From Nitrospirota bacterium (GTDB taxonomy: Bacteria; Nitrospirota; Nitrospiria; Nitrospirales; Nitrospiraceae), in NCBI GenBank assembly GCA_963701855.1, contig CAVPBK010000006.1:1504001-1568000 (forward strand): a stretch of DNA of 64,000 nucleotides. The letters run 5' to 3'. Positions 1,648 through 59,875 of this stretch are shown here, in pieces. The notes under the pieces were generated by a model. That model saw nothing but the letters and a program-made list of their open reading frames with translations, was not told where the DNA came from and did no database searches. Position numbers and translations under genes: made by a program. How positions within the stretch are numbered: the first letter of the stretch is position 1; the number at the start of each line of letters is the position of its first letter.

Positions 1648-1669
1648 AAAACGGTGTCAGGAACCGATT
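1648..1669 (+). repeat. Junction motif type 1 (AAAACGGTGTCAGGAACCGATT)
   Basis: Similar to 22589-22611 and 27167-27192; imperfect hairpin; lies upstream of an NPYG gene. Confidence 0.6.
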
Positions 1670-1886
1670 AGGTCTGAGGTCCCTGCGCAAGCATAGCCTT
1701 GTCGGCCGCTTGCGCTGATCTCCGAGAGGGAAGTACGCTCACGTCGAAAGTGCTGAGTCGAGGGGCACTGCTTCAGACCGAGTGAAAAGGCTCGTTATGC
1801 CGATGTCCTTACTCCTGCTCATCCTGTTGTTACCCCTGCCGTTCTCCGTCCATGCTGAAGATCTCGGGGAGCTTAGCGCGAACCCC

Positions 1887-2009
1887 GCGGGTTTCTCTGT
1901 TTCTCTGGTCTATCTCGTTGATCTGGTTTGTTTTGTTTATTTGGTTCATCTGGTTAGTTTCGTTCAACCAAAAATCAGAGAAACCAGATAGACCAAATAG
2001 ACCAGCAAG
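1887..2009. repeat. 9-bp-periodic palindromic (REP-like) element
   Basis: Left arm of TCTGGT-type 9-mers, right arm of ACCAGA-type 9-mers. Confidence 0.8.
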
Positions 2010-2064
2010 GGCTCTCCGTTCTCACCGGACTCGATCAAGAATCCCTACGGCGCCGGGAATCCCT

Positions 2065-2256
2065 AGCCCGCATTATTCATGACAGTTCGTCGCGAAATCG
2101 CTGAGCCGCGTCGCGAGAGCGGCGCGCGGAGCCAGGAGGACCTGAGGCGTACTCGTGCAGTACGTTGAAGGTACGAGGGGCGAGCCCGCCGACCGAAGGC
2201 TCGTCGTAGTAGCGGATCGGCGATTGCAGCAGAAGTGTTCATGATTAATGCGGGCT
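2065..2256. mobile_element. MITE-like palindromic element
   Basis: TIRs AGCCCGCATTATTCATGA / TCATGATTAATGCGGGCT (17/18 complementary); absent from the other NPYG gene copies. Confidence 0.8.
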
Positions 2257-2597
2257 TGAGCCCCAGCAGTCCCACGAATCCCCACGGCCGCGGCCTCCGA
2301 ATCGAAGGACGCTGATTCATTCGCTGAACCGCTCCACGTGATCTCATGGCTGCTTGACACCGCGGTCCTACAACTCAGTTCACGCCTTGAAGCTTTAAGA
2401 CGCTTCATTGGGAAGCCTCCGGCCCTCCGGGGGATTCTTATCATGATTTCACCTCGCGGCTGGGCATAGACTTAGAAGAGCTTCCCATCCCCTTCTCGTA
2501 GCAAATTGACATAGTGGATTAGCAATGATACTTTCAGCCGCCAATGTATCGCTGCGATTGTGGAAGGAAATGAAAGTATCATAGTACGGACTGCTGT

Positions 2598-3755
2598 ATG
2601 AATCCTGCTGATTTTACAGAGGAAAAGAATGGCCAATTAATTAAGACCCAGCGTGACTATTGGGCATTTCTCCCGAATCCCCTTCCTCCCCAGCTCACGC
2701 TGAGCTGGGATTTGGTGAACCAACTTTCTGAGGCCGATCGGGCGCTCAGCGAACTCGCAGGAACAGCGCGCACCTTACCCAACCCACACTTGTTAATAGG
2801 GCCGTTCATCAGACGCGAAGCCGTGCTCTCCAGTCGCATCGAGGGCACCCAAGCGTCTCTGTCCGATCTTCTGTTTTTTGAAGCGTCAGGATCGGTCGAT
2901 CCGAAAGCCCCGGATGCTCGGGAGGTAGCCAATTATGTGAAAGCGATGGAATACGGATTGGTGCGTCTGAAGAAGTTTCCGCTCAGCCTCCGCTTTATCA
3001 GAGAAGTGCACGAGCATCTCATGCATGATGTACGCGGGGAACATTTGACCCCCGGAGAATTTCGCCGCTCCCAGAATTGGATTGGCCCAGATCGCTGCAC
3101 GCTGATGGACGCCACATACGTTCCACCTCCGGTCGAAGAAATGGAACAAGCCTTAGGCCAATTCGAGGCCTACTTGCATGCGCCCTCAACGGTGCCTCTC
3201 CTGATTCGCCTCGCAGTCATCCATTACCAATTTGAGGCGATTCATCCGTTCCTGGACGGCAATGGCAGAATCGGACGACTCCTCATTACCCTTTTGCTAT
3301 GTAAAGAGGGCGCTCTCCCGGAACCGTTGTTGTATTTAAGCGCCTACTTTGAACGCTACCGGAATGAGTATTACCGTCTTCTTCTGGCTGTGAGCCAGTC
3401 GGGCAAGTGGATCGACTGGATCTCGTTCTTTCTCCGGGGAGTCGCTGAACAATCACGAGACGCGCTGGTTCGTTCTGATCAATTACTTCAATTGTGGAAG
3501 AACTATCGCGGCGAGTTCCAGTCAGCTCGATCGTCGGCGCTCCAACTTCGCTTGGTGGACCAGCTGTTTGCGTACCCCGCAATTACCGCAAACCAGGCTG
3601 CAAAGCTGTTAAAGGTAACCCATCGCTCGGCTCAGTTGAACATTGAAAAACTGATTCGCAAGGGGATTCTCAAAGAGGCCACTGGCAAGCAGCGCAACCG
3701 AGTGTTTATCGCTCCGCAAATCGTGAAGATCATCGAAGCGACACATGCAAGCTAA
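2598..3755 (+). CDS. Fic family protein (N-terminal extension, Fic domain, C-terminal HTH)
   Basis: HPFLDGNGRIGR catalytic motif; SSRIEGT motif. Confidence 0.95.
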   Translation: MNPADFTEEKNGQLIKTQRDYWAFLPNPLPPQLTLSWDLVNQLSEADRALSELAGTARTLPNPHLLIGPFIRREAVLSSRIEGTQASLSDLLFFEASGSVDPKAPDAREVANYVKAMEYGLVRLKKFPLSLRFIREVHEHLMHDVRGEHLTPGEFRRSQNWIGPDRCTLMDATYVPPPVEEMEQALGQFEAYLHAPSTVPLLIRLAVIHYQFEAIHPFLDGNGRIGRLLITLLLCKEGALPEPLLYLSAYFERYRNEYYRLLLAVSQSGKWIDWISFFLRGVAEQSRDALVRSDQLLQLWKNYRGEFQSARSSALQLRLVDQLFAYPAITANQAAKLLKVTHRSAQLNIEKLIRKGILKEATGKQRNRVFIAPQIVKIIEATHAS

Positions 3756-3813
3756 AGCAAGACAGCTAACAACTCACACGGCGAATGCTCGATTTAATCA
3801 GGGGGGCCTTCGC

Positions 3814-4007
3814 TGTGATAATTTTGTGCTACAAAGCTTCACAAACGACCGAATTCAGTAGAACCAATGGAATCAGTAGAACACTAGCAAGCCCATGATT
3901 TTCAACGATAAACGGGGAAACCTTCGCAACATCGAGCGGTTCGAATTATTGCCCTGCTGCCACTCTTAATCAGCGGGCCGTAGGTTCGACCCCTACACGG
4001 CCCACCA
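3814..4007 (+). repeat. att-like site: ~150-bp arm + tRNA-Lys(CTT) 3' half (3963-4007)
   Basis: CTCTTAA loop, TCAGC, T-arm GTAGGTTCGACCCCTAC, ends CCA; no 5' half; collinear with 13719-13912. Confidence 0.9.
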
Positions 4008-4175
4008 AACCTCGCTTGCGCGTGCCGGCGGCTATTCAGGCGAAGCCTCTCTTCATTGACGCCGCCGGATAACCCCCTCCAGTAGACCTGTCTTTGTAGG
4101 CAGTAAAACAGAGAAAATATATTTTTCTGCCCCCCTGCTGGGCTTTGAATCTAACAGCCTGTGGAAAAACTATGT

Positions 4176-4445: not shown

Positions 4446-4519
4446 GCCCAGTCCTTTCTGATGGTGCGGCTCAGCACGGGGCTGACCCAACCCTGAGCCA
4501 AGCCGGCTTTGCGGTCGAT

Positions 4520-5827
4520 ATGGCCTGTGATGGCACAGAAGCCCTGAGCAAGGCCAATGCGGGAACGTACGATACTGTGTTGAGCGATATCCGCATGATC
4601 CCGTGTTCCGGTTTGGATCTTTTGGATTCGATTCGCAAGACCATGCCGGAGCTGCCCATCGTGCTCTTGACCGCGTTCGGCTCGGTCGACACTGCCATCC
4701 AAGCCATGAAGCAAGGAGCATTCGATTACATCGCCAAGCCCGTGAATCTTGACGAACTCATCCTCACCATAAAGCGAGCCGTCAAGCATCGGCGTCTGAT
4801 AGAGAACACTCGCACGCCTAAGCGTGCGTTTAATGAACAGTCGCGGGCCGCCTCTTTGATCGGACAAAGCAAGCAAATGGTCGAGGTCTTCAAACTTATT
4901 GGAAAGGTCTCTCACAGCCGGACAGCCGTACTGATTCAGGGTGAGAGCGGCACCGGCAAAGAATTAATCGCCCGCGCAATCCACGATAACAGCCCGCGTG
5001 CGACTTACCGATTTGTCCCCATCAACTGTAGTGCGATTCCAGATACCTTGCTCGAAAGCGAACTCTTCGGTCACACGAAGGGTTCGTTCACCGGTGCTCA
5101 CACGATGCGGCGTGGATTGCTTGAGGACGCGAGCGGTGGCACGTTCTTTTTGGACGAAGTCGGCGATCTCTCTCCGGCCGGACAGGCAAAACTTCTCCGC
5201 GTCCTCCAAGAAGGTGAAATCCGAAGGATTGGAAGCAACGAGTCGGTACGCGTAGATTTGCGGGTTATTGCAGCCTCGCGCCGAAATCTCGCCCAACTGG
5301 TAGCGACCGGCCGGTTTCGTGAGGATCTGCTCTACCGGCTGAACACGGTCATGGTTCTCCTGCCTCCACTTCGGGAACGGCATGAAGATATTCCCTTGCT
5401 GGCAGAATTCTTTCTCGCAAAGTATGGCGACAAGAAGGAAGTTCCTGTCACGTCTTTTTCATCCGCCACGATGAGCGCGCTGACTGAATATTCCTGGCCG
5501 GGGAACGTGCGTGAGTTAGAACACGTCGTTGAACGGGCAGTGGCGCTGGCCTCGCAGGCTATTCTCTCAATCGAGGATCTCCCACCTGAAGTCATTCAGA
5601 AAGACGGAGAAGCTTCGGATCAGAGTGACATCTTCCTCGGCACGCTCAAAGCGCTGCGGCGGGAACAAGTGCTAAAAATTCTGGAATCAACCCATGGCAA
5701 CAAAGAGCGGACGGCTCGTTTACTCGGTATCAGCAGACGAACGCTCTACCGACTCCTCGAACAATACGGGCTCGGCAAAACTAAATCTTCGACCGAAGCT
5801 GACACTTCGAATCCTGTCGGTTCCTGA
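4520..5827 (+). CDS. NtrC/AtoC-family sigma54 response regulator, receiver N-terminally truncated
   Basis: [35 protein letters not shown], Fis-type HTH; first receiver strand (..DD) missing. Confidence 0.9.
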   Translation: MACDGTEALSKANAGTYDTVLSDIRMIPCSGLDLLDSIRKTMPELPIVLLTAFGSVDTAIQAMKQGAFDYIAKPVNLDELILTIKRAVKHRRLIENTRTPKRAFNEQSRAASLIGQSKQMVEVFKLIGKVSHSRTAVLIQGESGTGKELIARAIHDNSPRATYRFVPINCSAIPDTLLESELFGHTKGSFTGAHTMRRGLLEDASGGTFFLDEVGDLSPAGQAKLLRVLQEGEIRRIGSNESVRVDLRVIAASRRNLAQLVATGRFREDLLYRLNTVMVLLPPLRERHEDIPLLAEFFLAKYGDKKEVPVTSFSSATMSALTEYSWPGNVRELEHVVERAVALASQAILSIEDLPPEVIQKDGEASDQSDIFLGTLKALRREQVLKILESTHGNKERTARLLGISRRTLYRLLEQYGLGKTKSSTEADTSNPVGS

Positions 5828-11073: not shown

Positions 11074-11100
11074 GGATAAACCGGGACATTCTACTTTTCC
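11074..11100 (+). repeat. Junction motif type 2 (ATAAACCGGGACATTCTACTTTT)
   Basis: Similar to 11816-11838 and 45485-45513. Confidence 0.6.
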
Positions 11101-11174
11101 TGCAGCGCCTGACCCGCTAGCACTGTTCTCCATGCGGGGAGTAGCCTGAGCCCACTGGTTGTTCTCCTGTTCGG

Positions 11175-11633
11175 ATGAGCGCCATGCGGAATGTCTTCTT
11201 CCTTCTCCTGCTGCTACTGCCGCTCTCCGTCCACGCGGAGGATATCGGCGAGCTGAGCGCGAATCCGTACAATCCTGATTCCACGTCCAATCCCTTCGGG
11301 GCTGGAAGTCCCTTCAAGCCGGACGGCCTGAACAATCCCTTCAGCCCCTACGGCAGTCCCTTCAGCAATCAATCCGCGACAAATCCCTTCGTTACCGATG
11401 CGCCTCGGCTCCTTGCTCGTCTCTCCGGTCTGTCTGGTCTCTTTGGTTTCTCTGGTTATTTTCCGGTCCGGTCAACAAGACAGACCAAATAGACTAGATA
11501 AACGAGATAGACCAGTTTCGTTTCTCCGTTCTCGCCGGACTCAATCAACAACCCCTACGGCGCCGGAAATCCTTACAGCCCCAGCAGTCCCACGAATCCC
11601 TACGGACGCAACCTTCGAATTGAAGGACGCTGA
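11175..11633 (+). pseudogene. NPYG/NPFG-repeat protein, copy 2, interrupted by a 111-bp palindrome (11412-11522)
   Basis: EDIGELSANPYNPDSTSNPFGAGSP...DAPRL | element | SPFSPDSINNPYGAGNP...IEGR*. Confidence 0.85.
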
Positions 11634-11671
11634 TCCAGCCGCTGAACCGCTTCGCGTGACCTCATGGCTGC

Positions 11672-11700
11672 TTGACACCTCCCTACGGACGGCCTAGCCT
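11672..11700 (+). promoter_or_regulatory. Putative sigma70 promoter TTGACA-17-TAGCCT in the conserved post-NPYG sequence
   Basis: TTGACACC conserved at 2354, 11672, 16959, 23193, 46086. Confidence 0.45.
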
Positions 11701-11863
11701 TGCCGATCATGCCGGGAGCACGTTACCAAACCTTCCGTCTGGGTGATCGCTCTGAACTACTTACAGAGCAGTTGCTGTCTGCCTTTGCATTCACAACCCG
11801 CGTTCCAGGGACCGGGAAACGGGGACATTCTACTTGTTCGGCATCGGCTGACATGCCAAGCGC

Positions 11864-12030
11864 ATGATTGCCGATGTGATCCTGCCCGATGGACTGAATC
11901 TCAATCAGAAACTCGTCAAGCAATGGTGGTGCTGGTGGTACCGGAAATATGCGTCGGCAGATACCACGTTAGAGAGGCTAGAGGCTGAAGCGAGGGAGGG
12001 ACGGAAGCAGAAGTGCGAGGACGCTAACGG
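11864..12030 (+). pseudogene. Thermonuclease (SNase) C-terminal remnant
   Basis: IADVILPDGLNLNQKLVKQ..CWWYRKYA..LE.EARE; matches 20610-21080. Confidence 0.8.
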
Positions 12031-12052: not shown

Positions 12053-12358
12053 CTACGGATTTTTAGGAAAAACGCCCTTCTCTATGAGTTTTTTGTTGTA
12101 CGCGTCGGCGTCCATGGGGCAGAGAAAGAGGTCTCTAACTTCTTTTAGAGTCTCAAGCCGAAGCTGCATTCTCATTGGCTTCAGAAGTGTGTCCCCATAT
12201 GTCTTGTAGTTAGAACCATGGGAAGTATAGGTGTAGGCCCCAGTCCTCTTGCCGTTATACTCGTGATAAAAATATTTGTGGCTTGATTTAGCAGGATCTA
12301 GCACAAACCCTTTTTGGGGAAGAGTGCTTTCGATCTTATCCCGAGGAACCTGAGACAT
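12053..12358 (-). CDS. HicA-like toxin candidate
   Basis: L.QKGF....SSHKYFY..NGK....T.SHG pattern; last gene of a tight operon. Confidence 0.55.
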   Translation of the reverse strand: MSQVPRDKIESTLPQKGFVLDPAKSSHKYFYHEYNGKRTGAYTYTSHGSNYKTYGDTLLKPMRMQLRLETLKEVRDLFLCPMDADAYNKKLIEKGVFPKNP

Positions 12359-12360
12359 TC

Positions 12361-12771
12361 TCAGGCGGCCTCGGCTAGGAGATTTGAAAAAATGTTTTTC
12401 AAGCGGATGGCGTCGCCGATGACTTGGGAGTCCTCAAGGGATCGGTAGTACTGCCAGAAATGGACGATGTGGTGTTCTAAATCGAGAACAGCTTCTTCTA
12501 AACTTCCACCCGTCCCGACCACGTTAAGCGCTTCGTTTTCCGCGAAGAACCACGCACCATCTTGAGTAACGTTAATACCGATCGGTTTCGACGGCAAGTA
12601 AGTGTGGCCAGCAATCGTTAACTTCAACAGAGGAAATTTAAATGGCTTAAAGAGGGGTTCTGCTACCGTTGCCGCTTCCTCATAGGTCGGAGAGCCTGGT
12701 ATAGGACGGAAGTGCGCAGGAAATTCTCCAAGGATTTCATGAGCGCTACGCGTCGCGCCGACCATGGTCAT
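12361..12771 (-). CDS. HicB-like antitoxin candidate
   Basis: WFFAENEALNVVGTGGSLEEAVLDL pattern; overlaps upstream gene by 4 nt. Confidence 0.55.
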   Translation of the reverse strand: MTMVGATRSAHEILGEFPAHFRPIPGSPTYEEAATVAEPLFKPFKFPLLKLTIAGHTYLPSKPIGINVTQDGAWFFAENEALNVVGTGGSLEEAVLDLEHHIVHFWQYYRSLEDSQVIGDAIRLKNIFSNLLAEAA

Positions 12772-13469
12772 ATTTCCTCCCCCCTTATATAGTTGCGGTA
12801 CTCGTCCGTGATCATGCCCTCAAACATTTGTTTTGTTACGCTGTGGCTCTCTTCCAGATACGCCCCAATTTTACCAAAGACCAAATCCGATTGCATGGCA
12901 TAATCGAAATCCAAAAGGATGGCCTCGTGACTCTTGTCTTCCGCTAACATATGCTCGATGCGCGCGTTAATGATCCCGTTCCCAACCGGCGAGGCAAAGG
13001 CAAAATTCATCGTGGTGAAATTATCGGTAGCCGGGGGAGGTAACTGAAACCCCACCTTCAGGTATTCGCGCAACGGAATACTTCCTGCTTTAGGCACAAA
13101 CGGAATGGCGTTGACATAGCGCAGCCCCGTCCTCGTCAGCTTCTCGATTTTGAATGTTGTTCTAAAAATGGCCGCTATTCTTAGGACTTCCTCTTTGAAC
13201 GCGTCAAAACCGGGGTATTTCTTCGTGCTGTACGCGAGCTTGTTGATTGCGGTCATGATGGTCGCTTGATCATCCTCTTGCTTAAAATGATACAAGGCCA
13301 GTGCGGGGGCGTCTCCAGGTTGTAGCTTTGGGACATACACCTTTGGGTATTTATTGCGGACCAGCCGGAAGAATTCATCCCGGCGACATTCGACCGCCGG
13401 GTCTCCGGGGAAACGGATCTCAAAAGCAACGTCTATGAGGGGCTGATTGGGATACTGTTCTGCACTCAT
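12768..13469 (-). CDS. TIGR04255-family protein
   Basis: YPNQPLIDVAFEIRF, YPGF..FK, RTGLRYVN, ILLDFD, H...K.MFE.MIT. Confidence 0.85.
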   Translation of the reverse strand: MSAEQYPNQPLIDVAFEIRFPGDPAVECRRDEFFRLVRNKYPKVYVPKLQPGDAPALALYHFKQEDDQATIMTAINKLAYSTKKYPGFDAFKEEVLRIAAIFRTTFKIEKLTRTGLRYVNAIPFVPKAGSIPLREYLKVGFQLPPPATDNFTTMNFAFASPVGNGIINARIEHMLAEDKSHEAILLDFDYAMQSDLVFGKIGAYLEESHSVTKQMFEGMITDEYRNYIRGEEI

Positions 13470-13718: not shown

Positions 13719-13912
13719 TGTGCTAATTTTGTGCGGCAATTCTTCACAAACAACCGAATTCAGTAGAAGCCATGGAATCAGTAGAAAGCCAGCAAGCTCA
13801 TGATGTTCAACGATAAACGGGGAAACCTTCGCAACATCGAGCGGTTCGAATCATTGGCCTTCTGCCACTCTTAATCAGCGGGCCGTAGGTTCGACCCCTA
13901 CACGGCCCACCA
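13719..13912 (+). repeat. att-like site: arm + tRNA-Lys(CTT) 3' half (13868-13912)
   Basis: 45-nt fragment identical to 3963-4007; arm TGTGCTAATTTTGTGC; preceded by GGGGTTCACCCC. Confidence 0.9.
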
Positions 13913-13917
13913 AAAAA

Positions 13918-19840: not shown

Positions 19841-20011
19841 CAGGTGTTAATAGGGTGTTAGGAATAGCGACAAACTGACTGGATTAGCGACCAGAAGAGC
19901 CGAGTAGAAGCGAATAGTGGAATGTGCGAATCGCCAGTACTGGCAAGGGGATTGCCCAAGCCATCAAGCACTTGAGCAACCCCCGAGCTGAGCACTCTTA
20001 ATCAGCGGGCC
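19841..20011 (+). repeat. Second-type att-like site: GGTGTTA tandem arm repeat + 19-bp tRNA-Lys core
   Basis: CAGGTGTTAATAGGGTGTTAG matches 13956-13976 at 19/21; CACTCTTAATCAGCGGGCC at 19993-20011. Confidence 0.75.
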
Positions 20012-20247
20012 TCAGGCTTGATAGCGCCGCATCCCATCGTGTTTTGGTTGTAGCCAGCGGCAATGGCCGACCGGCTAGCGCCTACGAGGCGCACCGCTCG
20101 CGCCAGTAAGACTGTCACTCCCGCCGCTTGTACCTCTCCGGAACGCCGGCTGCGGCCTCTGCCTCACGTTTCCTCCGTGAACTGTGCGTTGGCTCTCCTC
20201 TACGTGTGAGAGAGCCAACTTCATTTCAACAACAAGGAGGAAACAAA

Positions 20248-20484
20248 ATGGCTACCCACAACAAACCCGCAAACACGCTGCGATGCGGCAACATCAAAGC
20301 GACCATCTGGCAGAATGTGAGCGAGAACGGTCCGTTCTTCACGACGACCTTCTCCCGCCCATTCAAGGATCAGTCTGGCGCTTGGCGCAATGGGTTTTGG
20401 TTCGGTATCAATGACCTTGAGGCCCTTGTCACTGTCGCGTGTGATGCCAAGGTGTGGATTGCCGATCACGTGCTCAAGCGTTGA
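20248..20484 (+). CDS. 78-aa conserved small protein, putative PC4/PUR-like nucleic-acid-binding fold (intact copy)
   Basis: AAGGAGG RBS; KP..TLRCGNIKATIW.N....PFF..TFSRPFKD.SG.W; degenerate copies elsewhere; fold is inference. Confidence 0.75.
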   Translation: MATHNKPANTLRCGNIKATIWQNVSENGPFFTTTFSRPFKDQSGAWRNGFWFGINDLEALVTVACDAKVWIADHVLKR

Positions 20485-20494
20485 GCACATGAAG

Positions 20495-20524
20495 GGGAAG
20501 CCTCCGGTCCTGCGGGGGCTTCCC
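20495..20524. terminator. Conserved hairpin GGGAAGCC...GGCTTCCC
   Basis: Copies at 2410, 24038, 25762, 53032, each after the PC4-like gene end. Confidence 0.6.
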
Positions 20525-20609
20525 TTCGACTCATCTACCTCATTGCGAGGTGACAAAATTCCAGTGCAGCGTGGTCTAATTTTTCGGAGGAAGGTCAGAA
20601 GCCCACACC

Positions 20610-21080
20610 CTATTTCCGTTTCCGCCACTCCCACGGGGGCACAGGATGAGGATGAGCCCACAAGCCTTTCCGCGCCTCTCGGGCATCCTTTTCTAGTCCT
20701 TCCAGCACCGTATCTGCCCGCGCATATTTCCGATACCACCAGCACAAGCTCTGCTTCACGAGTTCCTGATTGAGATTCATCCCATCAGGCGGGGTCGCAT
20801 CGCCAAGGGTGCGCTTATACTGTTCGTTGCCGTGCGTCTGGATCGTAACGTTTTTGCCGAAGGCGAGGGATGAGGCGGCCTGCTTCGCTCGTTGGCCGAA
20901 GGCTTGGCCTTTTTCTGGGCAGTCGATCCCATTAAGACGGATGCGTTCACCTTGTTGGTGGTGCAGGACTTCGATGGTGTCGCCGTCAATTATCCCGACT
21001 ACTCTTCCGTTGAAGTCGGCAGCTAGCAAGGCTGTACGGTGAACGAGGCGGCTCCTAGAAAGCGCTGGGGTATCGGCCAC
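20610..21080 (-). CDS. Thermonuclease (SNase), 5' end possibly replaced
   Basis: IIDGDTI, RLNGIDCPE, YKRTLG, EARKGLW, PPWEWR. Confidence 0.9.
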   Translation of the reverse strand: MADTPALSRSRLVHRTALLAADFNGRVVGIIDGDTIEVLHHQQGERIRLNGIDCPEKGQAFGQRAKQAASSLAFGKNVTIQTHGNEQYKRTLGDATPPDGMNLNQELVKQSLCWWYRKYARADTVLEGLEKDAREARKGLWAHPHPVPPWEWRKRK

Positions 21081-22532: not shown

Positions 22533-22698
22533 ATTGACAAGGCGTGTTTTAAAAGACATCCGAGTGGTTGTCGCCTGTCATGAAGAAGGAAATGGTGCCA
22601 GGAACAGTTTCTAGCTGCCTTGCGTCGAGTTCCAGGCGAGAAGTAGGCTGGCGGTGAGAAAGAAAGGTTGAGGCTGAGGCTCAGTAAAGAGGCTCGCC

Positions 22699-23154
22699 AT
22701 GTGGGTTGTCTTCCTCCTTTTGCTCCTGCTGCTGCCACTGCCGTTCTCCATCCACGCGGAAGATCTCGGCGAGCTAAGCGCAAATCCGTTCAATCTTGAG
22801 TCCACGTCCAATCCATTCGGAGCCGGGAGCCCCTACAAGCCGGACGGCATCAACAATCCCTTCAGTCCCTACGGCAGTCCCTTCAGCAATCAATCAGCAA
22901 CGAATCCGTTCGCCACCGATGCACCTCGGCTCCTTGCTCGTCCCTCTGGTCTGTCTGGTCTCTTTGGTTTCTCTGGTTATTTTCCGGTCCGGTCAACAAG
23001 ACAGACCAAATAGACCAGATAAACGAGATAGACCAGTTTCGTTTCTCCGTTCTCACCAGTCTCGATCAAGAATCCCTACGGCGCAGGGAATCCCCACAGC
23101 CCCAACAGTCCCACGAATCTCTACGGTCGCGGCCTTCGAATTGAAGGACGCTGA
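22699..23154 (+). pseudogene. NPYG/NPFG-repeat protein, copy 3, interrupted by a 111-bp palindrome (22933-23043)
   Basis: Same junctions as copy 2; type 1 motif at 22589-22611 upstream. Confidence 0.85.
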
Positions 23155-23345
23155 TCCATTCGCTAAGCCGCTCCACGTGATCTCATGGCTGCTTGACACC
23201 TCAGTACTACACCGTAGCCACGGGTTTGCTGTCGTAGCCATCCCCGGCAGTGACCGACCGGCTAACTCCCATGAAGCGCACCGCTCGCGCCAGTGTCACT
23301 CCCGCCGCTCGTTCCTCTCCGGCACGCTGGCGATGGCCTCTGCCT

Positions 23346-23522
23346 GGCCCGAACGATTCATGAATACCTGCTACGTCGTCCGATCCTCTCGCCCGGCGGG
23401 GCTTTTCTCGTTCGGCCTCCTCGACGGACTGACAGTACGCCTGCGTCGGCCTTACTTGCGAGAAGCCCCGGCGGGCTTCGGTCTCGAACGTCTCGCGACG
23501 GCATTCATGAATAATCCTGGCT
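23346..23522. mobile_element. MITE-like palindromic element related to 2065-2256
   Basis: Ends GGCCCGAACGATTCATGAAT / ATTCATGAATAATCCTGGCT; empty site visible at ~20165. Confidence 0.75.
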
Positions 23523-23604
23523 TACTTTTCCTCCGTGAACTGTGCGTTGGCGCTCCTTTTTCTGTGCGAGAGCCAACTTCGTTTCAACCAAGGAGGAAAC
23601 AAAG

Positions 23605-24026
23605 ATGGCAAGGAGCCTGTCCGACATTGCCCTTCGTGACGAGGCGAAGGAGGTGTGGCCAGATGCGAGGCCGCAGGTCTGGAAAAACCGGAGGTGTATT
23701 CGCTGGAATCCATTGAGGATTTTTTCGGGCCGAGAACGACGCAGATGGTCGCAGATCGTTCGCTGCAGTAGAACGGTCAATATCGGACAGGCTCCTCGCA
23801 ACAACAAACCGCGAATACTCTGCGATGCGGCAGCATCAAAGTGACGATCTGGGAGAATGTCAGCGAGAAGGGTCTGTTCTTCTCAACGACGTTCTCTCGC
23901 CCATTCAGGGATCAGTCCGGCGCGTGGGGCAATGGGACCTCCTTCGGTCTCAACGACCTTGAAGCGCTTGTCACGGTTACGTGTGACGCCAAGGAGTGGA
24001 TTGCCGCTCACGCCTTGAAGCGTTGA
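23605..24026 (+). pseudogene. Degenerate PC4/PUR-like gene with a ~190-bp foreign insert after the start
   Basis: Leader and RBS as at 20190-20250; homology resumes at ~23800. Confidence 0.75.
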
Positions 24027-24169
24027 GCTGCTTCCATGGGAAGCCTCCGATCTCTGAGGGCTTCCCTCCGACCCAGCTATTCTTCTACTTCTTTATGAAG
24101 TAACAAAATTCCAGTACAACATGGTCTAGTTGTTCGGGGGAAGGTCATGACCAGCCGCCGCGATTCGCT

Positions 24170-45483: not shown

Positions 45484-45597
45484 CGAAATAAACGGGGACA
45501 TTCTGCCTTTTTTAGCAGCGGTGGCCCCGCTTGCGCTCATCTCCAGGCTGGGCGCGAGACTAAACTCGCTGGCTACGTGCTCGATACGAGGATCGCC

Positions 45598-46045
45598 ATG
45601 TGGGTTGTCTTCCTCCTTTTTTTCCGGCTGCTCCCGCTGCTGCTCTCCGTCCACGCGGAAGACCTCGGCGAACTGAGTGCCAATCCGTACAATCCTGATT
45701 CCACGTCCAATCCATTCGGGGCCGGAAGCCCCTTCAAACCGGATGGCTTGAACAATCCCTTCAGCCCTTACGGCAGTCCATTCAGCAATCAATCGGCGAC
45801 GAATCCCTTCGCAACGGACGCACCGCGGCTCCTTGCTCGTCTCTCTGGTCTCTTTGGTTTCTCTGGTTATTTTCCGGTCCGGTCAACAAGACAGACCAAA
45901 TAGACCAGATAAACGAGATAGACCAGTTTCGTTTCTCCGTTCTCGCAGGACTCAATCAACAATCCCTACGGGCGCCGGGAGTCCCTACAGCCCCAACAGT
46001 CCCACGAATCTCTACGGTCGCGGCCTTCGGATTGAAGGACGCTGA
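45598..46045 (+). pseudogene. NPYG/NPFG-repeat protein, copy 4, interrupted by a 102-bp palindrome (45832-45933)
   Basis: Same junctions as copies 2 and 3, one 9-mer shorter; type 2 motif at 45485-45513. Confidence 0.85.
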
Positions 46046-46153
46046 ATCTATTCGCTGAATCGCTCCATGGTGATCTCATGACTGCTTGACACCTCAGTCC
46101 TATACCGCGGTTCACGGGTTTATTGCCGTAGCCTTCGGTTGACGATTCTTCGA

Positions 46154-46840
46154 TCATGTCGACACCCGATCAATAACAAGTAGCGCCTCGTATTCACTAG
46201 GCAAGTTCTGAAGTGAGGCCCACCATGGCGGCGGTTCGCTTGGATGCGGTGGGCTCCACTCTCTCGTCTCCTCGCTCGAAACAGGGGTGAAATGCGTTTT
46301 CACTCGCAGACTTCTGGCGTTGAAATCTGCTCCTCTTAGGTCAGGGCATTGGGGCCGTATTTCGTTGATCATGTCTATGAATTCCTGAGAAGGAGTACAC
46401 TCGCCAATATAGACTTTCCCATGGACTACGTTCGTAATGACAAGGGCAGCGATGGGATTTGGAGTAGCGCAGCCCACCCATCGACAGGTGGATAATGCAT
46501 CAATTAATGTATCTACGAGTCGTGTCGCCACTTTCTTTCGTCTGTGGTGAGGAAGAACTGCCAGCGAGTCGATCCACCCAACAATCCCACAAGTGTAGCG
46601 AAGAATTCTGGCATAGAGGTAGCCAATAACTCCTTCGGTTTGATGTTGAGCTAGAAACAGAAGATCCGTACTTTCTAGCCTCTCCTTTGTTTTCTTTGGT
46701 CCCAATCGGTACGGTTTCCCCTGGGGGGTTGTACCAAAGCTGTTACAAAAAACGTGTGAAACGGCGTCCACCAAACTCAAGATGGCGGCAGCATCTCTTC
46801 CCTTATAAGACAGAAATTCATATGCATCGCGCTCGTTCAT
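46154..46840 (-). CDS. GNAT-family acetyltransferase with C-terminal extension
   Basis: WIDSLAVLPHHRRKKVATRL; ATPNPIAA. Confidence 0.8.
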   Translation of the reverse strand: MNERDAYEFLSYKGRDAAAILSLVDAVSHVFCNSFGTTPQGKPYRLGPKKTKERLESTDLLFLAQHQTEGVIGYLYARILRYTCGIVGWIDSLAVLPHHRRKKVATRLVDTLIDALSTCRWVGCATPNPIAALVITNVVHGKVYIGECTPSQEFIDMINEIRPQCPDLRGADFNARSLRVKTHFTPVSSEETREWSPPHPSEPPPWWASLQNLPSEYEALLVIDRVST

Positions 46841-46907
46841 TACGAGTCAAATCTCCAGCTTAATCGTAACGATAGTTCGAGCGGGGAGGCGTGAGGGAGA
46901 GGAAACG

Positions 46908-47684
46908 TTAACGCTTGATAACAACCAGTGCTTCAAACGCGTTTGGCAAGTGCTCTATGAAATCCCACCACTTCGGAGATACCATTGCCCGTTGCGGTTC
47001 CCACTTTCTCTGATCAGAACGGGACAAAGGACTGAATCCCGTCTTGATCAGTAAATTCTCCTTATCAAGGGCACAACCCCGCAAGTCGAAGCAGTTCTCC
47101 TGTATTTCTTTTAACAACTGAAATATGGGGAAAGGCGGGAAACAACGGCCAACGTAGTGAATTCCAGGGACGCATCGAGTGATCACGTAGGCTGCTATTG
47201 GATTCGGTGTTGCAAATCCCACTAGTGGAGCCGCCTTTGTAGCCGCGACAAAGTTCTTTACCAGGGCGGTGGCGATTCCCTGCCGACGGTATATTGGGAG
47301 TACAGCCATTGATTCAATCCAGGCAACTCTGCCTGCAGATGAAGGTATTTCCTTCCCAAAGAGGTATCCCACTCCGGAATGTGTATCCCCTGCGATGAAT
47401 AGATAATCCGTACTCATCAGTCGCTCGCTCACGGACTTCGGGCCCATACGATACGGCTTGCCATCGGGTCTGAACCCGAAGCTTTCATTGAAAATGTGTG
47501 AGACCAATCTGACCGCATCAGGGTCGGAAGCTGCGGTGAACCCAGCCGACATCGAGATGCTGGATGGCACCACTGTTAGGCCCAGATCGCAGGTGTTATC
47601 TGAAGTGTGGGTTAGACCGAGATCATACGAATGTGAGGTTCCTTGAACGACTGAATCGCTTTTTGCTGACACCAGTGGAGTCAT
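46908..47684 (-). CDS. GNAT-family acetyltransferase, paralog of the adjacent gene
   Basis: WIESMAVLPIYRRQGIATAL; ATPNPIAA; KPYRMGPK. Confidence 0.8.
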   Translation of the reverse strand: MTPLVSAKSDSVVQGTSHSYDLGLTHTSDNTCDLGLTVVPSSISMSAGFTAASDPDAVRLVSHIFNESFGFRPDGKPYRMGPKSVSERLMSTDYLFIAGDTHSGVGYLFGKEIPSSAGRVAWIESMAVLPIYRRQGIATALVKNFVAATKAAPLVGFATPNPIAAYVITRCVPGIHYVGRCFPPFPIFQLLKEIQENCFDLRGCALDKENLLIKTGFSPLSRSDQRKWEPQRAMVSPKWWDFIEHLPNAFEALVVIKR

Positions 47685-47942: not shown

Positions 47943-48094
47943 TGTGCTAATTTTGAGCTTCAATTCTTCACAAACGACCGAATTAGGTAGAAGCAATAGA
48001 ATCAGTAGAATCCCAGCAACTCATGGTTTTCAACGATAAACGGGGAAACCTTCGCTCCATCGATCGGTTAGTATCATCGGCCTTCTGTCACTCT
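47943..48094 (+). repeat. att-like arm truncated at the start of the anticodon loop
   Basis: Collinear with 13719-13871; homology stops at CACTCT. Confidence 0.85.
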
Positions 48095-52682: not shown

Positions 52683-52784
52683 TAAACTTCAGATATGAGA
52701 GCGAGCCGTTTCCTCCGTGAACTGTGCGCTGGCTCTCCTCTACCTGTGCGAGAGCCAACTTCATTTCAACAAGGAGGACACAAG

Positions 52785-53020
52785 ATGGCTACCAACAACA
52801 AACCGCGAATACGCTGCGATGCGGCAACATCAAGGCGACGATCTGACAGAACATCAGCGAGAACGGTCTGTTCTTCTCAACGACTTTCTCTCGCCCATTC
52901 AGGGATCAGTCCGGCGCGTGGCGCAATGGGACCTCGTTTGGCCACAATGCTCTTGAGGCGCTCGTCAGCGTTGCACGTGAAGCCAAGGAGTGGATTGCCG
53001 CTCACGCCTTGAAGGGCTGA
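52785..53020 (+). pseudogene. PC4/PUR-like gene copy with frameshift and stop
   Basis: Collinear with 20248-20484, including leader hairpin and 3' hairpin. Confidence 0.85.
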
Positions 53021-53144
53021 GCTGCTTCACTGGGAAGCCTCCGACATCCGGGGGCTTCCCTTTTATTTCGAATGAGTTTCTAGTAGAGAGTGGAGAAGGG
53101 ACACTGTGCGGATTATTCCAAGACTGGAACGGTTTCTTCCCTCA

Positions 53145-53465
53145 TCAAGCCGGTAAGAGCGTTCCCCTGTGTTGCTCAATATGCTTCCTGACCTTACCCG
53201 GTAGAGCTTGCTCGGCAAGGCGCAGCTCATACGTCTTCTGCAGATTCATCCAGAATTCAGCTGTCGTATCAAACAATGTCGCCAGACGTACCGCCGTATC
53301 ACCCGTAATGCCTCGCTGCCTTTTGATAATGGCCGTGATCCGGTTCGCAGGAACTTTGAGGGCCTTGGCGAGCATATTGGCATTGATCGGCGGCTCTGCC
53401 GACTTCATGAACTCCTCAAACAAGATTTCTCCCGGATGAACCGGCCGCATTCCATTCTTGATCAT
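53145..53465 (-). CDS. higA: HigA-family antitoxin
   Basis: PVHPGEIL.EEF, RGITGDTAVRL, AEFWMNLQ..YEL. Confidence 0.95.
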   Translation of the reverse strand: MIKNGMRPVHPGEILFEEFMKSAEPPINANMLAKALKVPANRITAIIKRQRGITGDTAVRLATLFDTTAEFWMNLQKTYELRLAEQALPGKVRKHIEQHRGTLLPA

Positions 53466-53478
53466 GACAGGTTCTCCT

Positions 53479-53767
53479 TCAGTGATAATCGGTGATTGCA
53501 ACCTCATACGGTTCGTCGGCCTTCCAGAGAAAACAAATCCTCCACTGATCGTTGATCCTGATGCTGTGCTGCCCGATCCGATCCGATCCGATCCCCTCTC
53601 AACATCTCCAACCGGTTTCCCGGTGGTGAAAGCAGGTCCTTGAGATCCGACTCGTTATCGAGCATTGTGAGTTTGCGTTCAGAAACCTTCTTGAAGCTGG
53701 AGAATTCCCTCACCATCTCTCCCGCAAAGAACTGCTGTGTCTTTTTGTCCCGGCACCTTCTGATCAC
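53479..53767 (-). pseudogene. higB: HigB (RelE-like) toxin frameshifted at a (GATCG)4 repeat
   Basis: PPGNRLE.LRGDR, then GQHSIRINDQWRICF.W...V.ITDYH* in another frame. Confidence 0.9.
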
Positions 53768-53809
53768 GATCTATAACCCACCTTAGTTTTACGAGTTACG
53801 TACTACGCA

Positions 53810-54001
53810 TGTGTTAATTTGTGCTGAAAATCTGCACAATGGATCGCATTCTACAGAATCAATGGAATGGATAGAATCGTCTCAAGTCCTTGTTCGCAAA
53901 GAAAAAACGGGGAAGCCTTCGCAAAATCAAGCCGGTGATATTTTATTCTTTTCGAGCTTTTAAGGCGAGGGTCCTGGGTTCGAGTCCCAGCCGGCTCACC
54001 A
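53810..54001 (+). repeat. att-like site: arm + tRNA-Lys(TTT) 3' half (53957-54001)
   Basis: CTTTTAA loop, GGCGA, CTGGGTTCGAGTCCCAG, ends CCA; no 5' half. Confidence 0.9.
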
Positions 54002-56984: not shown

Positions 56985-57859
56985 CGGAAAAGCGGATCCT
57001 AGTGACGGGAGCGTCATCCGGAATCGGCCGGGCTTGCGTCTTGCGATTGGCAGCTGCGGGCCACCGGGTGATTGGGGTGTCCCGATCGGAAATCGCGACC
57101 GATGCGAAGTCCGGCCCTGGGCCACTTTCCGGCAACATCGAGTACTTGCGGATGGACATCGCGGATGCGGATACAGTGCAGCAAACAGTGGAAGAAGCTG
57201 TCAGTAGGATGAGTCGGCTCGACGCGGTTATCAACTCGGCAGGCATCGCGGTAGCAGGATCGCTGGAGGATACGCCTCTGGAACTTGTACGCTCACAGAT
57301 GGAGACGAATCTGCTCGGGGCTATCTACTTGACGCGCGCAGCAGTACCGCATCTTCGCCGTAGTGCTCCCAGCTGCCTGATCCACGTTTCTTCTCTGGCT
57401 GGAGAAGTTGCGCTTCCGTATCAGGCGCTCTACTGTGCCACCAAATTCGGGCTGAATGGGTTATGCGAGGCGCTCCGCTACGAACTCGAGCCGCAAGGGA
57501 TTCGGGTAATATCGGTCCAGCCGGGCAGTGTACAAACGGAGCTGACTAAGAACCGTCAGACCGTTGCTGCCAGCGAGCCCTATCAGGCTTCGGCTAACGC
57601 AGCGCTGGCTGTAAACGATGCTGACGAGGAATCCGGAGTGGGTCCGGACGTAGTTGCTCAGATGGTGGAGGAAGCGATTTGCGATGAGAAGGCAATGGGG
57701 TGGCAAACCGTCGGTCACTTTAAGGAGCGGATAACTGTCCCCGCGCGGCGCCTATTGCCAGATCGCTGGTTTCGACGAATCATCGCATCTCATTACGCTA
57801 TTGCCTCGGCTCACTTCAAGCAACGCGCAGGGAAAGCACCGGATGACGAGGTGGGCTGA
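56981..57859 (+). CDS. Short-chain dehydrogenase/reductase
   Basis: TGASSGIG, NSAG, YCATK. Confidence 0.95.
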   Translation: MTEKRILVTGASSGIGRACVLRLAAAGHRVIGVSRSEIATDAKSGPGPLSGNIEYLRMDIADADTVQQTVEEAVSRMSRLDAVINSAGIAVAGSLEDTPLELVRSQMETNLLGAIYLTRAAVPHLRRSAPSCLIHVSSLAGEVALPYQALYCATKFGLNGLCEALRYELEPQGIRVISVQPGSVQTELTKNRQTVAASEPYQASANAALAVNDADEESGVGPDVVAQMVEEAICDEKAMGWQTVGHFKERITVPARRLLPDRWFRRIIASHYAIASAHFKQRAGKAPDDEVG

Positions 57860-57963
57860 CGCCAATTCAGCACCTCTTATAGTCAAAATTTGTGGGTTCT
57901 TGCGCTGTGGTGTTTCAGCATTTCACCCAGTCTGTCTCAACCGAGGGGTTCACCCCAAAGGGA

Positions 57964-58148
57964 TGTGCTAAATTCGTGCTAGAAATCTTCACAATGTGGA
58001 TCGCATTCTACAGAATCAATGGAATGGATAGAATCGTCTCAAGTCCTTGTTCGAAAAGAAAAACGGGGAAGCCTTCGCAAAATCAAGCCGGTGATATTTT
58101 AGTCTTTTCGAGCTTTTAAGGCGAGGGTCCTGGGTTCGAGTCCCAGCC
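57964..58148 (+). repeat. att-like site: arm + tRNA-Lys(TTT) fragment (58113-58148)
   Basis: Near-identical to 53810-53992; acceptor strand diverged; GGGGTTCACCCC upstream. Confidence 0.9.
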
Positions 58149-58348
58149 ACCGCACCGCTTCGTACTGTAGACAGAACCTTCAAAACGAATTTCTACTTTG
58201 TCATTCCTGGGAACCATCTTCCAGCGCCAACTTGCAAGGAGTTGTAGCTCGTTTTAGTCAAAAACGTGTCGCGCAAAACCCGATTCATTTGCAACCTTGC
58301 ATAGTAGTGCTATCTTAACCGTAAGAGCCACGAATGGAGGTTTGTTCC

Positions 58349-58801
58349 ATGAAGCCTATTCTCTATCACGACATTGACGGTGTGTTATTCGGTGAGTACG
58401 CCGGAGAATTCCAGCTCCGTCCAGGTACGAAGACGTGGATCAAGTGGGCGCGGGAACACTTCGACATTGTGTTTCTTACCATGTGGAAACACGAAGAGAT
58501 TGATACACTGTTAGCCGTTCTCACAGTGGAGAAATGCATGAAATCCCTTCAAGCTCCAGGCTTCCATTCGGCAAACTGGCAGAAGTACGAAAACAAGGAA
58601 CTCTGGGTGGCTGATGCGGTAGCGAAGACCGGCAAACGTGACTGGCTTTGGATCGATGATGAGGTGCCAAACGTGGATAGGCTCCAGCACCTTGGCCTTG
58701 ATCCGAATCGGTGTTTCAAGGTCAACTCAAAGGGAGCCAACGAGCTAGAAGTGCTCAAAGAAAAACTGCTCCAACTTCTCAGCCGTCCCCAAGCTGCATA
58801 A
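58349..58801 (+). CDS. Capless HAD-like protein
   Basis: LYHDIDGVL, FLTMW, K, WLWIDDE; GGAGG RBS. Confidence 0.75.
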   Translation: MKPILYHDIDGVLFGEYAGEFQLRPGTKTWIKWAREHFDIVFLTMWKHEEIDTLLAVLTVEKCMKSLQAPGFHSANWQKYENKELWVADAVAKTGKRDWLWIDDEVPNVDRLQHLGLDPNRCFKVNSKGANELEVLKEKLLQLLSRPQAA

Positions 58802-58833
58802 GCCTTAAAAATCTTGCCAAAAATGTGTCAGGG

Positions 58834-59780
58834 TGAGCTTCCCCCGAAATTTCGTCTTCCAAGGGTGACGTAGAATCGCAGTCATCATGAAAGGGAGGGC
58901 GATGAAGATACCGAAGCAGCACTATCCGAGCGAGTTCAAGGACTTGGCGGTGAAGCGAGTCAAAGACGGACTGTCAGCTGGCGCGGCGGCCAAGGAGTTG
59001 GGGCTGGTCGAACAAACGCGACGGAACTGGGTCAAGGCGGCCGCGGCAGACACGCTCAACGGGGCGGGAGCTCCGGTGGTCACACCGGAGCAGATGGCAC
59101 TATCACGACTGCGCGCCGAGCACGTGCGACTGAAGCGGGGAACGAAATCCTAAAAAAAGCGACGGCAGACTTCGCAAGGGACACGCTGTGACGTATGCCT
59201 GGATGGACGTGCAGCGCATGGCCTACACCCTGGACAAGATGTGTGCGGTCCTGGCGGTGAGCGAAAGCGGTTATCGCGCCTGGAAGCACGGCGGCACGCC
59301 CGATCGCACACGGCTGACAGACGCCCAGATGCTGGCGCTGACCCGCGCCAGTCACACAGAACTCAAGGGCGCCTACGGTGATCAACGCACTGACGATGGC
59401 GTGGTTCCGACGGAAACCGGCCGTGGGGCTGCTGCATCACTCGGATCGGGGCAGCCAGTACGCCAGCCAACCCTTCCAGGTCAAGCTGACGGTCTATGGC
59501 ATGGAGGGCTCCATGAGTCGCAAGGAAAATTGTTGGGATAACGCGCCCATCTAGAGTTGGTTCAACAGTTTTAAGAACGAGCGGGTCCATGGGTTGCGTT
59601 ATGCCACACGCGCAGAGATGACGGCGGCGAGCTTCGAGTACATTGAGGTGTTCTACAACCGGACGCGACGGCACTCGAGGTTGGGCTACCAGTACCGATG
59701 CAGTTTCTGGAGGATTGGCGTCTGGCTCAACATGAGAAAAACCTGGTAGCATGAAACTCGCCCGATGGAAGACGAAAAAC
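58834..59780 (+). mobile_element. IS3-family element, degenerate (internal deletion, truncated right end)
   Basis: orfA Y.SEFK..AVK; A7 slippery run ~59152; [38 protein letters not shown] / TGGAAGACGAAA. Confidence 0.9.
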
Positions 59781-59782
59781 AG

Positions 59783-59875
59783 CCCTATGATTCCAGCAGT
59801 CCACGAATCCCTCTACGGCCCCGGCCTTCGGATCGAAGGGCGCCGATCCACCAGCTGAATCGCTCTAGGTGATCG
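59783..59875 (+). pseudogene. 3' remnant of an NPYG gene and its conserved downstream sequence
   Basis: CCAGCAGTCCACGAATCC..GGCCTTCGGATCGAAGGGCG..GCTGAATCGCTC..GTGATC. Confidence 0.7.

Follow-up and report, generated by a model that had tools for sequence, protein, structure and literature searches.

A probable pile of decayed integrative elements at a tRNA-Lys gene of Nitrospira, with a conserved orphan gene and a variable toxin-antitoxin or defence slot

The 64-kb stretch of DNA analysed here (C6:1504001-1568000, called the window throughout; positions given without a contig are counted from its first letter) comes from a genome of 4.3 Mb in 15 contigs whose host genus is Nitrospira, and it raises the question of why one module, comprising a non-coding block, a structured leader and a gene for a 78-residue orphan protein, recurs there in partial copies that are followed by different small genes and then by an attachment (att) arm. 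The initial annotation took these copies for the right ends of a single family of integrative elements that stack at tRNA-Lys and carry a variable addiction or defence slot. Our own reading, to which we give a probability of roughly 70%, is that the DNA from a tRNA-Lys(CTT) gene left of the window (C6:1490129-1490204) to about position 62600 is a pile of ~76 kb of decayed integrative elements, belonging to a Nitrospira-specific family and accreted at att sites derived from tRNA genes. The coordinates of the features in the window are collected in Table 1.

There is no complete tRNA gene inside the 64-kb window; the complete tRNA-Lys(CTT) gene, with tRNA-Arg(CCG) before it, is situated 13.8 kb beyond its left edge. 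From this tRNA to the chromosomal genes of the right flank the distance is ~76 kb here, as against 4.5 kb in the locus L042 of a relative, where the genes upstream of the tRNA-Arg/tRNA-Lys pair are collinear with those of this genome, a single unit of block, leader and gene follows the tRNA, and homologues of window positions 62664-64164 (62-91% identity over the aligned pieces) start 4.5 kb past it; among relatives with enough flank, L042 alone shows both borders. The molybdopterin oxidoreductase and cytochrome b561 genes of the right flank mark the end of the island. As is usual for tRNA islands, a full tRNA stands at one end and a direct repeat of its 3' half is found elsewhere, and the segment is largely absent at the same site in this one relative. 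Because tRNA 3'-half direct repeats, an integrase remnant and the 4.5-kb relative all occur, the sequence supports the reading of the region as inserted DNA anchored at tRNA-Lys(CTT). Between the two borders Pfam detects sigma-54 activators, a histidine kinase, PilZ proteins, transporters and similar genes, and no phage, conjugation or intact integrase genes.

Within the window, arms of ~150 bp abut tRNA halves directly four times. Of the arms that had been called tRNA-Lys att sites, those at 3814 and 13719 are joined to positions 31-76 of tRNA-Lys(CTT) and that at 53810 to positions 32-76 of tRNA-Lys(TTT), but the arm at 47943 has no tRNA part, its homology stopping at CACTCT; two further junctions, at 57963-58148 and 19900-20011, had been overlooked. 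Native sequence accompanies some of the halves: the downstream flank of the tRNA gene continues after the first half to position 4088 (85 nt at 96.5%), and the second junction with a type 2 arm carries ~28 nt similar to what natively flanks the tRNA-Lys(TTT) gene on contig C2. The two type 2 arms share 93% identity with each other and ~71% with type 1. Yet another arm type, the third and unrelated to these, precedes tRNA-Lys(CTT) 3' halves at C7:23006-23053 and C9:511429-511478, on contigs without any tRNA-Lys(CTT) gene. At C5:91390-91576 a homologue of arm type 2 (92% over 98 nt) is followed after ~45 nt by the 3' half of tRNA-Arg(CCT), so arms homologous to one another go with halves of different tRNAs. 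Two tRNA fragments also belong to the array left of the window: 27 nt of tRNA-Lys(CTT), 1.2 kb past the full tRNA, and 37 nt of tRNA-Thr(TGT). The anchoring of stacked elements at tRNA-Lys(CTT) is upheld, but they do not form one uniform family, since the arms are of at least three types and the tRNA pieces come from two tRNA-Lys isoacceptors and from tRNA-Thr.

The second tRNA-Lys(CTT) half is adjoined by the C-terminal remnant of a tyrosine integrase that reads towards it, and no PF00589 match lies between the tRNA and window position 13900. The remnant is 60-79% identical to relatives, several of them 390-425 residues long and all adjoining tRNA genes. The relative situated at tRNA-Lys(CTT), with 79% identity, is cut by a contig end; the long-frame relatives examined (390-425 residues) stand beside tRNA-Pro, tRNA-Arg or tRNA-Thr, and neither block nor 78-aa gene occurs within their flanks of ~1.5 kb. 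In the genome at large there are 37 places with tRNA fragments of at least 24 nt, mostly of positions 31-76. Several of these fragments are far from, or on another contig than, the cognate tRNA gene, and many integrases adjoin tRNA genes; the genome is rich in island scars.

Self-BLAST and a repeat finder recovered the module copies at 72-97% identity over 85-620 nt (E 1e-6 to 0), bearing out the partial copies of the initial annotation, with repeat support absent for 1648-1780 of the first copy only. The four series of module, small genes and arm that it had described are all present, and an additional module copy lies left of the window at C6:1494764-1495630. Its list of module parts does not stand in full. 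In a copy-number profile of the whole genome the NPYG region, block, leader and 78-aa gene each have 1-5 copies in the island region and 0-5 outside, and three of the listed pieces belong to genome-wide dispersed repeat families that are like miniature inverted-repeat transposable elements (MITEs): the repeat at 2063-2256 has a median outside depth of ~34-38 copies, that at 23611-23796 one of ~19-22, and a palindromic repeat at ~1900-2000, present on both strands, one of ~51-56. Such repeats have interrupted the module itself, for in the fourth copy the 186-bp repeat (23611-23796) splits the 78-aa gene after its first codons, and the palindromic repeat breaks the NPYG reading frame in those copies that were read closely in this genome as well as in the copy of a relative.

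The 78-aa gene is present in 11 of 24 genomes of the same genus and in none of 16 genomes from other families of the order. It occurs in 157 stretches of a species collection, 74 of which were kept as loci, each with up to 10 kb of flank; all 74 are from Nitrospira, Nitrospiraceae or Nitrospirota. With a unit defined as a match that covers at least 60 of the 78 residues, the 74 loci contain 86 units, in which the core order is block, leader and then 78-aa gene (leader adjacent in 67/86, block in 69/86). The NPYG gene lies upstream in only 5 of the 86, and the thermonuclease (SNase) family has 42 tblastn high-scoring segment pairs (HSPs) genome-wide, mostly C-terminal fragments; neither gene can be kept in the module core, where both had been placed. 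NPYG gives six tblastn matches in the present genome, four of them in this island. NPYG-like copies at C11:118053-120149 adjoin Sel1-repeat, response-regulator and HsdM genes, with no tRNA fragment listed nearby on that contig, and the SNase HSPs cluster in island-like regions, for example C12:2-48617, C9:482984-486068 and C4:271052-280626.

In related genomes the 78-aa module occurs together with tRNA fragments in part of the units. A same-strand tRNA 3' half follows within 6 kb in 27 of the 64 units with enough flank, at a median distance of 1.85 kb (Lys-CTT 9, Lys-TTT 8, Met 3, Arg-TCT 3, Phe 2, Thr-CGT 2), compared with a chance rate of ~3% per 6 kb and strand that was estimated from the 37 places in the 4.3 Mb of this genome. 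In 12 of the 27 an arm homologue stands directly before the half; 15 of 76 units have a tRNA, or part of one, no more than 300 bp upstream. Two compact loci illustrate the arrangement. One unit (L056) runs in 2.8 kb from a full tRNA-Lys(CTT) through an integrase stump, block, leader, gene, HigA/HigB and arm to a tRNA half; another (L053) runs in 1.5 kb, with no integrase, from a full tRNA-Phe through leader, gene and a TacA/GNAT toxin pair to a tRNA-Phe half. In the genome G012 an island of 19.5 kb at tRNA-Arg(TCT) (C63 ~286600-306200, loci L040/L016), flanked by a tRNA 5'-half repeat, has the order integrase, insertion sequence, type I restriction, Fic, NPYG, module and, beside the att repeat, ParE/Phd; ThsB-TIR and antitoxin genes are embedded in its type I restriction-modification region. 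The module had been taken for a right end, but in relatives block, leader and 78-aa gene directly follow the tRNA-derived core, which places them on the left (P') side of units of 1.5-4 kb.

This core is visible in an alignment of the left junctions, where ~28 nt of tRNA-Lys(CTT), positions 31 to ~58, precede the block even where the neighbouring halves are those of tRNA-Met. With up to 3 mismatches allowed, a 14-mer taken from this core is found in the 90 bp before 16 of 80 blocks and in none of 80 control segments. Seven of the 78 block copies have arm, core and block in one uninterrupted run, and the third arm type precedes four more. Upstream of the block, 77 copies show 47 classes of sequence unrelated to one another, as would be expected at the sharp end of a mobile unit. 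Taken together, an arm of ~150 bp, a core of ~28 bp and a block of ~130-150 bp would make up a site of ~330 bp laid out like the attP of a tyrosine integrase, in which the arm may correspond to the P arm and the block to the P' arm. In the window the segment 19900-20011, which directly precedes block, leader and the sole intact 78-aa gene, is a putative junction of this attP-like kind together with the adjoining block.

Two observations bear on the nature of the 78-aa open reading frame (ORF), the coding part of the core unit. Sixty-four of the 86 copies in relatives are intact ORFs of 74-84 residues, and the median ratio of nonsynonymous to synonymous substitution rates (dN/dS) is 0.155 (561 pairs among 34 copies of 78 codons); on account of both, the ORF is a real gene under purifying selection. 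The present genome has five matches at the protein level, four in the island and one, degenerate, ~170 bp from tRNA-Leu(TAG), and four of the five copies are broken by a missing start, a splitting repeat or a stop codon. The AlphaFold2 model of the protein, at a mean confidence (pLDDT) of 89.5, has four strands and one long helix. The protein has no match in Pfam or NCBIfam and no sequence match in the PDB at E up to 10, and the best structural matches of the model are not significant: Borrelia PUR-alpha among the Foldseek PDB matches (E 0.14, TM 0.30), YbaB-like HP0035 among the VIA matches (Z 5.4, root-mean-square deviation 4.3 over 61 residues) and a best BFVD match at E 0.026. Matches in the ESM Atlas are to unnamed clusters only, mostly from Nitrospirota. 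The label PC4 (PF02229) or PUR-like given in the initial annotation is thus unconfirmed, with no significant family or fold match; the protein may act as a DNA-binding or directionality factor.

The leader in front of this gene folds into a hairpin far below shuffled controls (z -4.9 and -2.6), its 5' strand pairing with the Shine-Dalgarno sequence. Across 68 copies the helix is nearly invariant: one of the 15 predicted pairs has changes on both sides (UA in 38 copies, GC in 22) and the remaining pairs are essentially invariant, with rare one-sided changes, so that support from covariation is weak. Downstream, the GGGAAGCC hairpin (z -4.4 and -3.2 against shuffled sequence) is terminator-like. 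No Rfam family falls in any module in a gathering-score scan of the whole window, whose sole hit is a fluoride riboswitch outside the modules, and a promoter scan of 19900-21200 gave no sigma-70-like site and two terminator-like sites, no more than in shuffled sequence.

Between this module and the arm lies the slot, and the proposal that it is a variable place for addiction or defence genes fits both the present array, which has SoFic, a putative HigBA pair and Gp49/HTH_37, and the relatives. The first slot gene matches the SoFic profile PDLC03963 over its full length (positions 5-359 of 361) and is by this match a SoFic family member with a predicted defence role; it scores 185 bits against NCBIfam NF046030, below the equivalog cut-off of 550. 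For the second slot, described as TIGR04255 with HicB/HicA-like genes, the TIGR04255 assignment is retained; the HicB-like gene is unconfirmed, and the HicA-like label corresponds only to a weak match of 12053-12358 (E 0.008). In the fourth, HigA reaches 88.1 bits against TIGR02607 (cut-off 47.7), the HigB-like toxin 26.7 bits against PF05015, just below the cut-off of 27, and the two genes overlap by 4 bases. Left of the window a Gp49-like toxin and an HTH_37 antitoxin (C6:1490525-1491430) come right after the full tRNA-Lys(CTT) and are closed by the 27-nt tRNA fragment, forming a mini-unit of 1.2 kb with neither arm nor module. Among relatives, 15 of the 27 units with a downstream tRNA half contain toxin-antitoxin or toxin-type families (TacA with a GNAT toxin, HEPN/MNT, Fic, HigBA, Gp49/HTH_37, and MazF with SMODS). 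Of the other slots, three are empty and the remainder hold different cargo.

These observations can be brought together in a model of accretion and decay. The compact unit would consist of a tRNA core of ~28 nt (from the anticodon loop into the T arm), the block, the leader with the 78-aa gene and terminator hairpin, a variable slot, and an arm of ~150 bp that abuts the next tRNA 3' half, the structured leader hiding the ribosome-binding site of the gene. Founder elements with an integrase would integrate at the anticodon-loop core of a tRNA gene and decay to units that have lost the integrase and kept the att sites, and units that arrive later would use the tRNA itself or an arm-core junction already present. 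Toxin-antitoxin genes located next to the arm might then penalise the loss of a unit from an array full of direct repeats, a stabilising role that draws on what is established for addiction modules. Since most units have no integrase of their own, an integrase would be needed in trans, as it is for cis-mobilizable elements (CIMEs). In this genome the array appears fossil or inactive, because it has an integrase stump only, four of the five 78-aa copies are broken and MITE-like repeats have landed in modules.

Several observations weigh against the accretion model. In the island no intact integrase is present, only the 103-residue remnant, and none was found beside the units checked in relatives, where the ORFs next to tRNA-Lys or tRNA-Met have 105-258 residues (five survey loci); nor was a complete reference element of the family, with a full integrase as the initial annotation had envisaged, found there. 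No tRNA half lies within 6 kb of 37 of the 64 units and no core motif precedes 64 of the 80 blocks, and the cassette picture therefore fits a subset only. The tRNA-Lys(CTT) array contains tRNA-Lys(TTT) halves and a tRNA-Thr fragment, and of the eight doubly flanked units in relatives, four differ in the tRNAs of their two sides; such mixed halves are not the product of simple integration at a single tRNA and need heterologous att recombination, homologous exchange in the shared module, or rearrangements. Integration through a core that ends near tRNA position 58 would fail to restore the tRNA, and it has to be assumed in addition that such units would enter at att junctions already in place. 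Finally, in a quick tree built from 90 copies of the module, which is poorly resolved (9 of its 87 branches are starred), the approximately unbiased (AU) test does not reject a single clade for the four copies of this genome (p-AU 0.94), and best-hit identities favour other genomes by 1-5 points only. It follows from the AU result that phylogeny cannot separate independent acquisition from local duplication.

A doubtful but possible form of the reading is one of working, integron-like gene capture on tRNA-type att sites. Integrase-less cassettes of 1.5-4 kb, each with a complete attP (arm, 28-nt tRNA core and block), the 78-aa gene translationally controlled by its leader and one set of toxin-antitoxin or defence genes, would be shuffled in trans among arrays at different tRNAs by related tyrosine integrases from other parts of the genome, and the 78-aa protein would be a new DNA-binding directionality or accessory factor. 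Such shuffling would explain the mixed halves. Recombination within a shared module is also expected to leave different tRNA halves left and right, as in the four of eight doubly flanked units, and it is conceivable, though unlikely, that the module of ~0.55 kb (block, leader, 78-aa gene and hairpin) is itself mobile or recombining, a selfish cassette that enters existing islands or is swapped between them, by homologous recombination or a so far undescribed site-specific route for instance, its link with tRNA being indirect as islands tolerate insertions. The module does have sharp borders on both sides, with its 47 upstream classes and with slots that differ downstream; a tRNA half occurs within 6 kb for no more than 27 of 64 units, and a tRNA or part of one within 300 bp upstream for no more than 15 of 76; in the G012 island the att repeat is 4.2 kb and the integrase 14 kb away from the module. 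Those 27 of 64, however, are ~15 times the estimated chance rate, arm, core and block are contiguous in seven copies, and the block includes the tRNA-Lys core at its left edge as an integral part, also next to other tRNAs; transposase, inverted repeats and target duplications were not noticed around the module on reading the sequence, though no dedicated search for them was made.

We regard it as improbable that the copies are old local segmental duplications which were never mobile as units, the tRNA halves being scars of a few unrelated prophage or island insertions. The unrejected single clade, the likeness among copies within the genome (83-89%, similar to the distance from copies of other genomes) and the lack of an intact integrase agree with such an origin, but series of module, slot and arm occur with different slots at tRNA-Lys(CTT), Lys(TTT), Phe, Met, Thr and Arg in many Nitrospira genomes, a relative has one unit where this genome has ~76 kb, and the arms in the window abut exact tRNA halves. 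Least probable is an integron-like array of attC-type cassettes inserted by an integron integrase at attI. The array does resemble one of small units with one to three genes, and toxin-antitoxin cassettes are typical of chromosomal integrons, but the integrase remnant scores 27.2 bits against the TIGR02249 integron-integrase model (cut-off 265) and the arm at 3880-3965 shows no more folding than its shuffles do (z 0.40), on which two grounds we rejected an integron; the sites consist of exact tRNA halves with 150-bp arms and not of imperfect palindromes, and a tRNA gene stands at the head of the array.

If the accretion model is right, the array belongs to a kind already known, for tandem decayed tRNA islands have precedents; the backbone, the very small attP-bearing units, the mixed tRNA halves and the genus-wide spread are new. 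Chromosomal integrons, which form arrays of short, promoter-poor units ending in a recombination site, with the integrase acting in trans and with toxin-antitoxin cassettes that are thought to be stabilising, differ in that the array here has no IntI-type integrase and no attC-like folded site, its sites being tRNA cores with flanking arms, like phage attP. [quoted passage not shown] The units here share with CIMEs that they are bounded by an arm and a tRNA half or core and that Pfam detects no integrase, relaxase or type IV secretion system family within them. They differ in that conjugation, mobilisation and intact integrase genes are absent by Pfam, which finds no ICE or IME with transfer genes in the array, in their size (down to 1.5-3 kb), in having an orphan 78-aa gene with a structured leader as backbone, in arrays that mix halves of different tRNAs, and in their host, Nitrospira; they are known from sequence alone.

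The ssrA-specific genomic islands of Dehalococcoides (PMC3146451) are likewise a genus-wide family at one small-RNA gene, with a syntenic integration-associated module by the site, phylogenetically separate variable cargo and a major share in strain-level diversity; their target is tmRNA, their integration module has its own genes and their cargo is catabolic operons, whereas here tRNA halves are the targets, the integrase has for the most part been lost and toxin-antitoxin or defence genes dominate the variable portion. Multiple higA/higB and phd/doc systems are placed in strain-specific fractions in a Nitrospira genome paper (PMC5596200). In a full-text literature search neither this backbone nor this architecture turned up for Nitrospira, in agreement with the initial annotation, which knew of no named element with this backbone.

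Nitrospira are key nitrifiers whose strain-level variation is poorly understood, and this locus and the 74 related loci point to genus-wide, tRNA-anchored arrays that concentrate toxin-antitoxin and defence genes. If the accretion model holds, it would offer a testable account of the way in which an organism difficult to cultivate collects such genes and retains them, and would define an orphan gene that is conserved under purifying selection and whose structured leader is conserved too; arm, core and block would serve as landmarks for island borders in Nitrospira metagenome bins, which tend to break there. Should the units be mobile in trans, they would constitute a cassette system distinct from integrons.

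Table 1. Features of the tRNA-anchored array and its right flank, in window coordinates
Feature	Position	Strand	Evidence or remark
Module copy 1: NPYG remnant, 194-bp dispersed repeat (2063-2256), 3' end of 78-aa gene and hairpin only (2380-2437)	1781..2437	+	Repeat search
Slot 1: Fic gene, predicted SoFic defence type	2598..3755	+	Pfam Fic_N and Fic; PADLOC PDLC03963, E 2.5e-122
Arm type 1 (presumed P arm), CAGTAGAA word present twice	3814..3961	+	92% identical to 13719-13914, 84% to 47943-48094
tRNA-Lys(CTT) positions 31-76 and 20 nt of flank	3962..4027	+	66-nt perfect direct repeat of the full gene locus; tRNA part 3962-4007
Module copy 2: NPYG gene split by palindromic dispersed repeat, and TTGACACC element	11076..11681	+	Self-BLAST, repeat finder
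SNase fragment with copy 2	11858..11964	-	82% identical to 20710-20816; Pfam SNase E 0.001 for overlapping ORF
Slot 2: three genes, TIGR04255 at 12768-13469, other two without family	12053..13469	-	
Arm type 1	13719..13866	+	
tRNA-Lys(CTT) 3' half, positions 31-76 at 13867-13912	13867..13914	+	48 nt at 100%
Tyrosine-integrase C-terminal remnant, 103 aa	13918..14229	-	PF00589 E 6.3e-13, profile positions 111-170 of 172
Divergent arm (19900-19993) and 18-nt tRNA-Lys(CTT) core (19994-20011)	19900..20011	+	Junction missed at first
Block of ~130 bp (presumed P' arm), then structured leader	20040..20247	+	Repeats, folding, junction alignment
Module copy preceding the SNase gene	20047..20600		Repeat search
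78-aa orphan gene, sole intact copy in genome	20248..20484	+	
GGGAAGCC hairpin, terminator-like	20488..20530	+	Folding z -4.4
Thermonuclease (SNase) gene	20610..21080	-	Pfam PF00565 E 2.6e-20
Module copy 4, fullest: junction, NPYG, TTGACACC, block, leader, split 78-aa gene, hairpin	22589..24155	+	Repeat support 22689-24147
Module copy 5, NPYG part only	45488..46136	+	Repeat search
Slot 3: two GNAT acetyltransferase genes	46154..47684	-	Pfam
Arm type 1 without tRNA half	47943..48094	+	
Module copy 6: leader, 78-aa gene with in-frame stop, hairpin	52707..53062	+	Repeat search, folding
Slot 4: HigA (53145-53507) and HigB-like toxin (53504-53767)	53145..53767	-	
Arm type 2 (53809-53956) and tRNA-Lys(TTT) positions 32-76 (53957-54001)	53809..54001	+	
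Arm type 2 (57963-58112), tRNA-Lys(TTT) positions 32-67 from 58113, then native-like flank	57963..58185	+	
NPYG 3'-end fragment	59793..59877	+	81% identical to 45993-46078
Right-flank chromosomal genes, molybdopterin oxidoreductase and cytochrome b561	62664..63999	-	Pfam; homologues near tRNA-Lys(CTT) in L042

Public sequencing runs also contain sequence from this region: 20 entries from 14 studies hold part of window positions 50500-58500, and three hold at least half of its sampled words. Among the genes around the junctions, a sigma-54 activator at 4520-5827 (+), just right of the att junction 3962-4088, has a truncated N terminus, its receiver domain beginning at profile position 28, and a fragment of the helix-turn-helix part of an IS3-type transposase (PF01527, E 7.3e-9) lies at 58887-59153 (+), right of the last att junction. 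Within the island a fluoride riboswitch (Rfam RF01734, 59.3 bits, E 6.3e-14) at 32102-32172 (-) stands directly upstream of the ORF 31787-32104 (-).

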